Positions 4,169 to 4,704 of a stretch of DNA of 64,000 bases are shown in pieces. The DNA comes from Waddliaceae bacterium (GTDB taxonomy: Bacteria > Chlamydiota > Chlamydiia > Chlamydiales > SLOH01), in contig JBBDJA010000010.1 of the NCBI GenBank assembly GCA_040880105.1, positions 65,275 to 129,274 of the forward strand, written 5' to 3'. A program made the translations under genes and the position numbers. The notes under the pieces were generated by a model that saw only the letters and a program-made list of their open reading frames with translations, made no database searches and was not told the origin of the DNA. Each line of letters begins with the position of its first letter. Positions within the stretch are counted from its first letter, which is position 1.

Positions 4169-4480
4169 TTAGAATCCAATACGGAACTGAACTCCCGAAC
4201 CCCCACGTCTGTAATATCTACCATGACGAGGTCCATAGAAGTTATTATATCCGGGGCCCCAATAATCACCATATGTATAGGGGCGATAATAATAGCTGCG
4301 ATTGTAAGGTCGATAGTAACCTCTTCTTACATAAGGACGCGATCCAAATCCACCGCGTACATACACACGCTGGCTTATTTCTGTATCGGCTGATCCCTTA
4401 AGTACTTCTGCTCCAGTGGCAGGAACTGCTACCATCATCCCTAACGCGATTAATAGTCCACTTACTTTTGCTAGGTACAT
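4169..4480 (-). CDS. Small exported Gly/Tyr/Arg-rich low-complexity protein
   Basis: ATG at 4480 preceded by GGAGG SD (4486-4490); signal peptide-like N-terminus; Y/R/G-rich body ending VQFRIGF. Confidence 0.7.
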   Translation of the reverse strand: MYLAKVSGLLIALGMMVAVPATGAEVLKGSADTEISQRVYVRGGFGSRPYVRRGYYRPYNRSYYYRPYTYGDYWGPGYNNFYGPRHGRYYRRGGSGVQFRIGF

Positions 4481-4512
4481 ATGCACCTCCATTTAATTTA
4501 TTAAACGATAAC

Positions 4513-4640
4513 GGAGGATTGCCCTCACTTGACCGCCTAAAAAGGCGAATAACAGATCATTTTCGTGATGTCTTTAAACCTAATCGGTTTAGCGTCACAA
4601 AACGTATCTGCATAAATCAAGATCATTGTGACAACCCTCC
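4513..4640 (-). ncRNA. Candidate structured cis-regulatory leader RNA with kink-turn
   Basis: Minus-strand fold by eye: P1 GGAGGGUUGUC/GGCAAUCCUCC; K-turn C-AAU-GA-U-C / G-U-GA-G; CUUGA/UCAAG; long hairpin capped by UAAACC-GAUUA-GGUUUA; hairpin CGCCU-UUUU-AGGCG; several G-U pairs form only on this strand. Confidence 0.6.
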
Positions 4641-4675
4641 TAAACTCTCTTTACTTAACCTCCTTCTATACTTTT

Positions 4676-4704
4676 ATTATCAAATAATAAATTTACAAAG
4701 TCAA
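4676..4704 (-). promoter_or_regulatory. Sigma70/sigma66-type promoter
   Basis: TTGACT (4704-4699), 17 nt, GATAAT (4681-4676) on minus strand; predicted TSS near 4669. Confidence 0.6.

Follow-up and report, generated by a model that had tools for sequence, protein, structure and literature searches.

Locus and transcription unit

The window analyzed here is a stretch of 64,000 nucleotides from a Waddliaceae bacterium (contig JBBDJA010000010.1), the genome of which (G000) is 90% complete, and an orthologous locus was present in a congeneric genome (G001; 57% complete). A leader element is encoded on the minus strand, flanked by a gene for a tyrosine/tryptophan permease (PF03222) and by tRNA-Gln-prs; the order of the genes suggests an environmental chlamydia. 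Read along this strand, the unit consists of a promoter (4704-4676), a leader of ~190 nt, an open reading frame (ORF) of 103 aa (4480-4169), and a long hairpin (4160-4018).

The promoter that an earlier note had claimed from the DNA sequence was present. It is of the sigma66/sigma70 type, with the hexamers TTGACT (4704-4699) and GATAAT (4681-4676) separated by 17 nt and 10 of 12 positions matching the consensus; in G001, both hexamers were identical and 13 of the 17 spacer bases were kept. This site ranked highest among four promoter-like sites between 3800 and 5400, and shuffled sequence yielded 4.1 such sites, indicating that a promoter match alone is not rare. The position of the promoter would place the start site near 4669. 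The published consensus of the Euo box is too rich in A and T to be discriminating here. The 5' segment of the leader (4641..4669, minus strand) was poorly conserved (14 of 29 positions identical) and contained an additional GGAGG (4663-4659; AGGAG in G001). The Shine-Dalgarno (SD) sequence GGAGG (4486..4490, minus strand) is located 5 nt ahead of the ATG at 4480, and both the motif and its spacing were identical in G001. No good terminator was found between the folded domain of the leader and the ORF, the sole candidate being a weak 5-bp site overlapping the closing helix of the domain.

The product of the 103-aa ORF (4169..4480, minus strand; 65% identical in G001) has a signal-peptide-like N-terminus, as judged by eye, a Tyr/Arg/Gly-rich body, and the C-terminal residues VQFRIGF. 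The protein was encoded in 2 of 401 genomes and belonged to no Pfam family; G000 contained no paralogue of similar composition. A search of 5.8 billion sequences returned one match, the protein itself, and the ESM Atlas returned only unnamed clusters at 0.89. Among seven matches in a profile search, only the G001 orthologue was strong, and two were weak small proteins (P0007 and P0008). The predicted structure was of low confidence (pLDDT 46), with one N-terminal helix.

The ORF is followed by the long hairpin (4018..4160, minus strand; z -9.4), which has 26-bp core arms (4146-4121 and 4053-4028) and then a U-tract. This hairpin was single copy in G000 and stronger on the minus strand than on the plus strand. 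Its counterpart in G001 (~1010-1160 of the locus) retained 25 of 26 and 21 of 26 positions in the arms and 36 of 67 in the interior, together with a conserved U·U mismatch. The hairpin is probably the 3' end of the leader-ORF transcript, as either a terminator-like or a processing stem.

On the other side of the unit, the sequence between the leader and tRNA-Gln promoters (4731-5000) was single copy and poorly conserved in G001 (103 of 270 positions identical). Gene content upstream of tRNA-Gln-prs differed by family, including pgsA-like, glycogen-synthase-like, and Asp23-like genes and long orphans (named by eye). Because different families hold different genes there, this site is prone to rearrangement.

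Structure of the folded domain

Positions 4513-4640 (128 nt) form a domain that is closed by P1, an 11-bp helix of 4640-4630 with 4523-4513. The 5' strand of P1 (4630..4640) opens with an SD-like GGAGG, which pairs with the anti-SD sequence CCUCC (4517-4513) at the end of the 3' strand (4513..4523); each strand was identical in G001 at 11 of 11 positions. In both the MFE and centroid structures, P2 (6 bp; 4621-4616 with 4533-4528) closes a three-way junction carrying a long hairpin, P3 (4610-4553), and a short hairpin, P4 (4547-4534), all on the minus strand. The closing helix, the junction, and its two hairpins were all found as the earlier note had described them.

The domain folded at -48.2 kcal/mol (z -6.0), a value that none of 200 shuffles matched. 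The plus strand of the domain was also well folded (-38.6, z -5.6), so the evidence for strand polarity comes from the promoter and from three G·U pairs kept in G001, not from the z-score. Strong folding alone was unexceptional in G000, since 14 windows reached z <= -6.0 among the 120 lowest-energy intergenic windows scored, of 1463. The G001 orthologue folded alone gave a z of only -1.6, with -2.1 for its plus strand. A descriptor for a kink-turn (K-turn) within a long helix had three matches in G000 and none in each of three block-shuffled genomes.

The many long intergenic hairpins of G000 favor the notion that the element is a mobile-element relic or a chance fold without function. This notion is largely refuted and hardly tenable, as the leader lacks a MITE-type terminal repeat and is present in a single copy, and as the conservation of its core, described below, is far above that of neutral sites. 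Identity as a MITE or REP repeat was rejected because both BLAST and the leader model recovered only one copy in G000.

Comparison with the Rfam 15 covariance models, including the riboswitch and T-box families, gave no credible match up to E 10 for the window element or the G001 locus, which answers the first check proposed in the earlier note, that for a known family. Two further candidates were rejected. An RNA thermometer disagreed with the predicted fold, which stayed the same between 20 and 45 °C. A leader peptide was considered for a 29-codon upstream ORF that begins 9 nt after the GGAGG of P1 in the window; G001 has CUG at that site, and a 1-nt indel alters the peptide. Long-range pairing between the leader and the 3' hairpin was absent from full-transcript folds of both genomes.

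As a separate observation, AT-rich, near-perfect, MITE-like intergenic hairpins with related arms were located at ~34200-34390 of contig C17, ~4050-4240 of contig C24, and ~23400-23590 of contig C7 of G000.

Conservation and range of the leader

The only orthologue of the leader was that of the congeneric G001, at the same locus and with the same downstream gene. Between the two sequences, P1 was identical at 22 of 22 positions and the core (P1, K-turn-like loop, P2, and junction) at 47 of 48, compared with 161 of 290 four-fold sites, the core segments having been picked after the alignment was seen. The loops of P3 and P4 were unconserved in sequence. All six P2 pairs were invariant; among the counted pairs, 1 of 12 in P3 and 2 of 4 in P4 were changed on both sides, and two P3 pairs were broken in one genome. 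In a structure alignment of the window with G001, 64 of 66 cells could pair and 3 of 33 pairs were changed on both sides, compared with 0 for slid structures; covariation between these two sequences was not significant, as 51 of 500 shuffles equaled 3/33. Invariant pairs give no information on pairing itself. RNAalifold recovered P1, P2, and P4 and placed P3 differently. Thus, where the earlier note had called for conservation and covariation in relatives, the former was found in the core, whereas the latter, with two sequences, fell short of significance.

Judging from this sequence comparison, the leader element is clearly under selection, with good support for the outer helices and P4 and less for P3. 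Without a match in Rfam and with its promoter, CCUCC, and downstream gene conserved in G001, the element is the undescribed RNA structure under selection that the earlier note had supposed. It is a real, conserved, and previously undescribed RNA motif of a known kind, namely a structured leader with anti-SD potential.

To define the range of the leader, we used a model built from the two sequences (R1), which is weaker than larger models, such that distant homologues may escape it. R1 matched 2 of 149 genomes of the order (G093 was left out of scoring), and BLAST gave one full-length match among 60 relatives. R1 was also negative in all five genomes of the family that prs places nearest and in 28 loci next to prs, in which tRNA-Gln has other genes upstream. 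A P1 pattern found eight metagenome loci, the best of which scored 17 bits, and none was credible. A loose core pattern matched in 99 of 401 genomes, and none of the 30 such places scored was positive. An all-species pattern gave 28 loci, and the only one to score had the same letters as the known G001 orthologue. Viral contigs, phages, and plasmids yielded no leader match. Among sequencing runs, none was listed as carrying the RNA, a result that carries no weight either way. The search method can detect such RNAs, because the tool recovered another chlamydial RNA from 35 of 61 genomes with a model of four sequences. Our literature search returned neither this leader nor any native chlamydial riboswitch or K-turn leader; in a 26-genome motif survey, Chlamydia pecorum was the only one included of the chlamydial names looked for in the available part of that paper (PMC8632094).

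Kink-turn-like loop between P1 and P2

The earlier note had assigned a box C/D-type K-turn to the loop between P1 and P2. On the minus strand of the window, this loop comprises C4628-G4524, the bulge AAU (4627-4625), G4624·A4525, A4623·G4526, U4622·U4527, and C4621-G4528. A further bulged A (4629), absent from the earlier description, separates P1 from the C-G pair. The bulged strand (4621..4629) reads -1b C, L1-3 AAU, 1b G, 2b A, 3b U, and 4b C, and the non-bulged strand (4524..4527) reads 3n U, 2n G, 1n A, and -1n G. In the nomenclature set out in PMC8191799, this is a standard K-turn, in which a 3-nt bulge is followed by G·A at 1b·1n and A·G at 2b·2n (4627-4623 with 4526-4525).

The loop of G001 keeps L1 A, L3 U, G1b, A2b, A1n, G-1n, and the 4b:4n C-G pair, and differs at -1b, L2, and 3b of the bulged strand and at 3n (G) and 2n (A) of the non-bulged strand. 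Conservation of the tandem pairs fails at 2n, which is A instead of G; the -1b:-1n pair, a Watson-Crick C-G in the window, is A opposite G, and 3b:3n changes from U·U to A·G. The K-turn assignment is therefore supported in part, the letters being standard in the window and non-standard in G001. An A·G pair at 3b:3n is a common natural choice; of four bacterial motif RNAs, three have it in their K-turn (PMC8191799). An A at 2n is rare, yet Kt-23 of T. solenopsae folds (PMC4316175; PMC3985660), and natural A·A cases at 2b·2n are known (PMC4316175). On these letters, the purine-mismatch loop conserved in both genomes is probably, not certainly, kinked. A search for the L7Ae family (PF01248), for which the control was positive in 8 of 14, detected no member in G000 (0/1; 90% complete).

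Anti-SD pairing and predicted folds

In the earlier note, the 3' strand of P1 was proposed to pair alternatively with the SD, giving two mutually exclusive folds. CCUCC lies 20-22 nt ahead of the GGAGG SD in both the window and G001. Among 65 G000 genes with such an SD, only one has CCUCC at -60 to -20 upstream of it, and the anti-SD:SD duplex of the window (-14.8) ranked within the top five when 377 genes carrying a strong SD were compared. Conservation of the alternative helix is limited to its 5-bp CCUCC:GGAGG core; the extended 11-bp helix is not kept in G001 (duplex -14.1 in the window and -9.1, core only, in G001).

The OFF fold was above the ON fold by 11 kcal/mol in the window and 2.5 kcal/mol in G001, and P1 dominated the predicted ensemble in both genomes. 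Predicted occupancy of the alternative helix was <= 0.014 at all transcript lengths tested and <= 0.022 at 20 to 45 °C. Even in the ON fold, the SD of the window is predicted to lie inside a local hairpin. When the 5' GGAGG of P1 was blocked in the model, anti-SD:SD pairing reached 0.89 in G001 and 0.02 in the window, the latter because the upstream GGAGG at 4663-4659 then captures CCUCC. The two folds exclude each other over the outer five P1 pairs, so mutual exclusivity applies to these pairs and not to the remainder of the helix. The switch itself was graded as weak, since the CCUCC:GGAGG core is kept but the extension is lost and occupancy is low. As P1 would close before the SD is made, translation is expected to be ON by default, and any switch would need a trans factor.

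These predictions bear on two other readings. The first is a riboswitch of a new metabolite or ion class, with the K-turn in its aptamer and the P1/anti-SD pairing as its expression platform. Such an RNA would account for a conserved junction core with variable distal stems, several riboswitches contain K-turns (PMC4316175), and the 3b:3n A·G of G001 is the pair found in three of the four bacterial motif K-turns mentioned above (PMC8191799). We nevertheless consider this very unlikely: the searches located the motif in a single genus, no known aptamer matches it, the default ON fold needs no ligand, and the 103-aa gene has no metabolite link, which counts against a classical riboswitch. The term "riboswitch-like" used in the earlier note is thus not upheld in the metabolite sense.

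The second reading is an element for mRNA stability or enhanced translation that does not switch, in which structured ends protect an mRNA with a long lifetime, such as one that the infectious form might store. Conserved structures at both ends of the 103-aa gene and the insensitivity of the ON fold to length and temperature are in accordance with it. However, simple protection requires neither invariant sequence nor a three-way junction, and ~29 unpaired nt precede P1, which makes this reading rather unlikely.

CsrA was considered because the leader carries three AGGAG/GGAGG sites. No csrA was detected in G000 (90% complete), where the genes that flank it in relatives lie 12 nt apart (contig C14, ~21079-21091). 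Within the order, csrA occurred in 29 of 149 genomes, and CsrA is mentioned for chlamydiae in PMC4652624.

Small RNA reading and a 6S-like RNA

A stand-alone or processed small RNA of ~130-165 nt that shares its promoter with the ORF, and that either acts in trans or serves as a scaffold for protein, would also explain an invariant closing helix at the ends followed by an A/U-rich stretch, as well as the dominance of P1 in both ensembles; the SD match would then be a by-product of the GC-rich closing helix. The ssrS-ygfA transcript of E. coli, in which a non-coding RNA is co-transcribed with the downstream gene, provides a precedent for such sharing. On the other hand, no clear U-tract follows P1, the unconserved loops offer no obvious seed, and the known candidates are accounted for: the leader is not 6S RNA, RNase P RNA and tmRNA are encoded elsewhere, and the SRP RNA of G001 is normal and likewise elsewhere. 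We regard the small RNA as possible but distinctly less than probable. With respect to SRP RNA, none was found in G000 (90% complete), which is probably an assembly gap, and it was present in four of four other genomes tested.

The 6S comparison led to an RNA outside the window. RF00013 remained under its cut-off in all 149 genomes scored, and four weak matches, one of them on contig C20 of G000 (~170-200 nt; 73641-73821, plus strand), shared sequence and fold. A model built from these four (R2) was single copy in each of 35 of the 61 chlamydial genomes and found no counterpart in G035 or in G001 (57% complete). The leader scored with neither RF00013 nor R2 with filters off, and the 6S-like RNAs were unmatched by R1; identity of the leader with 6S RNA was therefore rejected.

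In 33 aligned copies of the 6S-like RNA, 22 of 30 pairs were changed on both sides, a value not reached in any of 500 shuffles, in an alignment that was itself fitted to the model. In the consensus, the closing stem is accompanied by a U-tract, the 5' bulge is rich in U, and both a 3' hairpin and an apical stem are present; these parts correspond to the description of canonical 6S RNA in PMC8414754. A gene of the lipoate-ligase family was located within ~1.5 kb in 20 of 33 loci. By sequence and fold, the C20 RNA and its relatives are candidate 6S-like RNAs. In 2015, 6S RNA was listed as unknown in Chlamydiae in PMC4607514, which cites a 6S survey. Our literature search, whose scope ended short of later and subscription papers, returned no report of chlamydial 6S RNA.

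Proposed function and significance

The reading we favor, held tentatively and somewhat below an even chance, is that the element is a candidate default-ON leader acting in cis on a monocistronic mRNA, which encodes a small secreted protein, and that a trans factor would close it, in distinction from a metabolite riboswitch; this is drawn from sequence and modeling. P1 would close once its 3' strand has been made, ahead of SD emergence, and its internal GGAGG would lock the anti-SD away, leaving translation ON by default. The invariant core, consisting of P1, the K-turn-like loop, P2, and the junction, could then serve as a binding surface for a trans factor, either protein or RNA. The unconserved loops of P3 and P4 fit such a recognized core better than they fit a base-pairing sRNA. 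If the outer P1 pairs were opened, CCUCC would be freed to pair with the SD and translation would decrease. The folded domain and the long 3' hairpin probably also shield the message from decay.

A bolder version, which we consider quite unlikely, is a new bacterial translational switch in which a ligand or a non-L7Ae protein recognizes the K-turn-containing three-way junction, G000 having neither L7Ae nor CsrA detected, and which would time a secreted Tyr/Arg/Gly-rich envelope protein in the chlamydial developmental cycle.

Few cases of control at the RNA level have been described in chlamydiae, the sRNA IhtA being one. A conserved compact leader would add a cis-regulatory RNA to the chlamydial phylum, although its reach is limited, as only two copies are known and both belong to one genus. 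Should its K-turn fold and be bound, this would point to a K-turn reader other than L7Ae. The 6S-like RNA, present across many chlamydial families, may outweigh the leader in importance and poses a testable question, namely whether the quiescent infectious form parks its RNA polymerase on a 6S RNA.

Comparison with known systems

The leader shares with 6S RNA (RF00013; PMC8414754) closed ends, a long apical stem, and a small hairpin 3' of the central loop. It differs in being a closed domain of 128 nt with a 5' loop strand of 5-6 nt, whereas 6S RNA is a rod of ~160-200 nt with a large single-stranded 5' central bulge.

As regards the K-turns of the drum, HOLDH, RAGATH-18, and Actinomyces-1 RNAs (PMC8191799), the common features are the 3-nt bulge, the G·A and A·G pairs, the C-G -1 pair and L3 U in the window, and the A·G at 3b:3n in G001. 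G001 deviates from them in its A at 2n, which is rare, and in lacking a Watson-Crick pair at -1, and none of these Rfam families matches the RNA around the loop.

Leaders containing a K-turn under the control of L7Ae exist in archaea, and the present leader has in common with them a K-turn near the translation start. Unlike theirs, its K-turn is located ~35 nt upstream of the SD, in a genome in which no L7Ae-family gene was detected.

With the translational riboswitches and leaders that operate by anti-SD and anti-anti-SD pairing, the element shares a long leader in which an upstream helix pairs an SD-like strand with the complement of the SD. It is distinguished from these by the lack of a known aptamer or ligand-related gene, by an OFF state that is scarcely populated in silico, and by its restriction to one genus.
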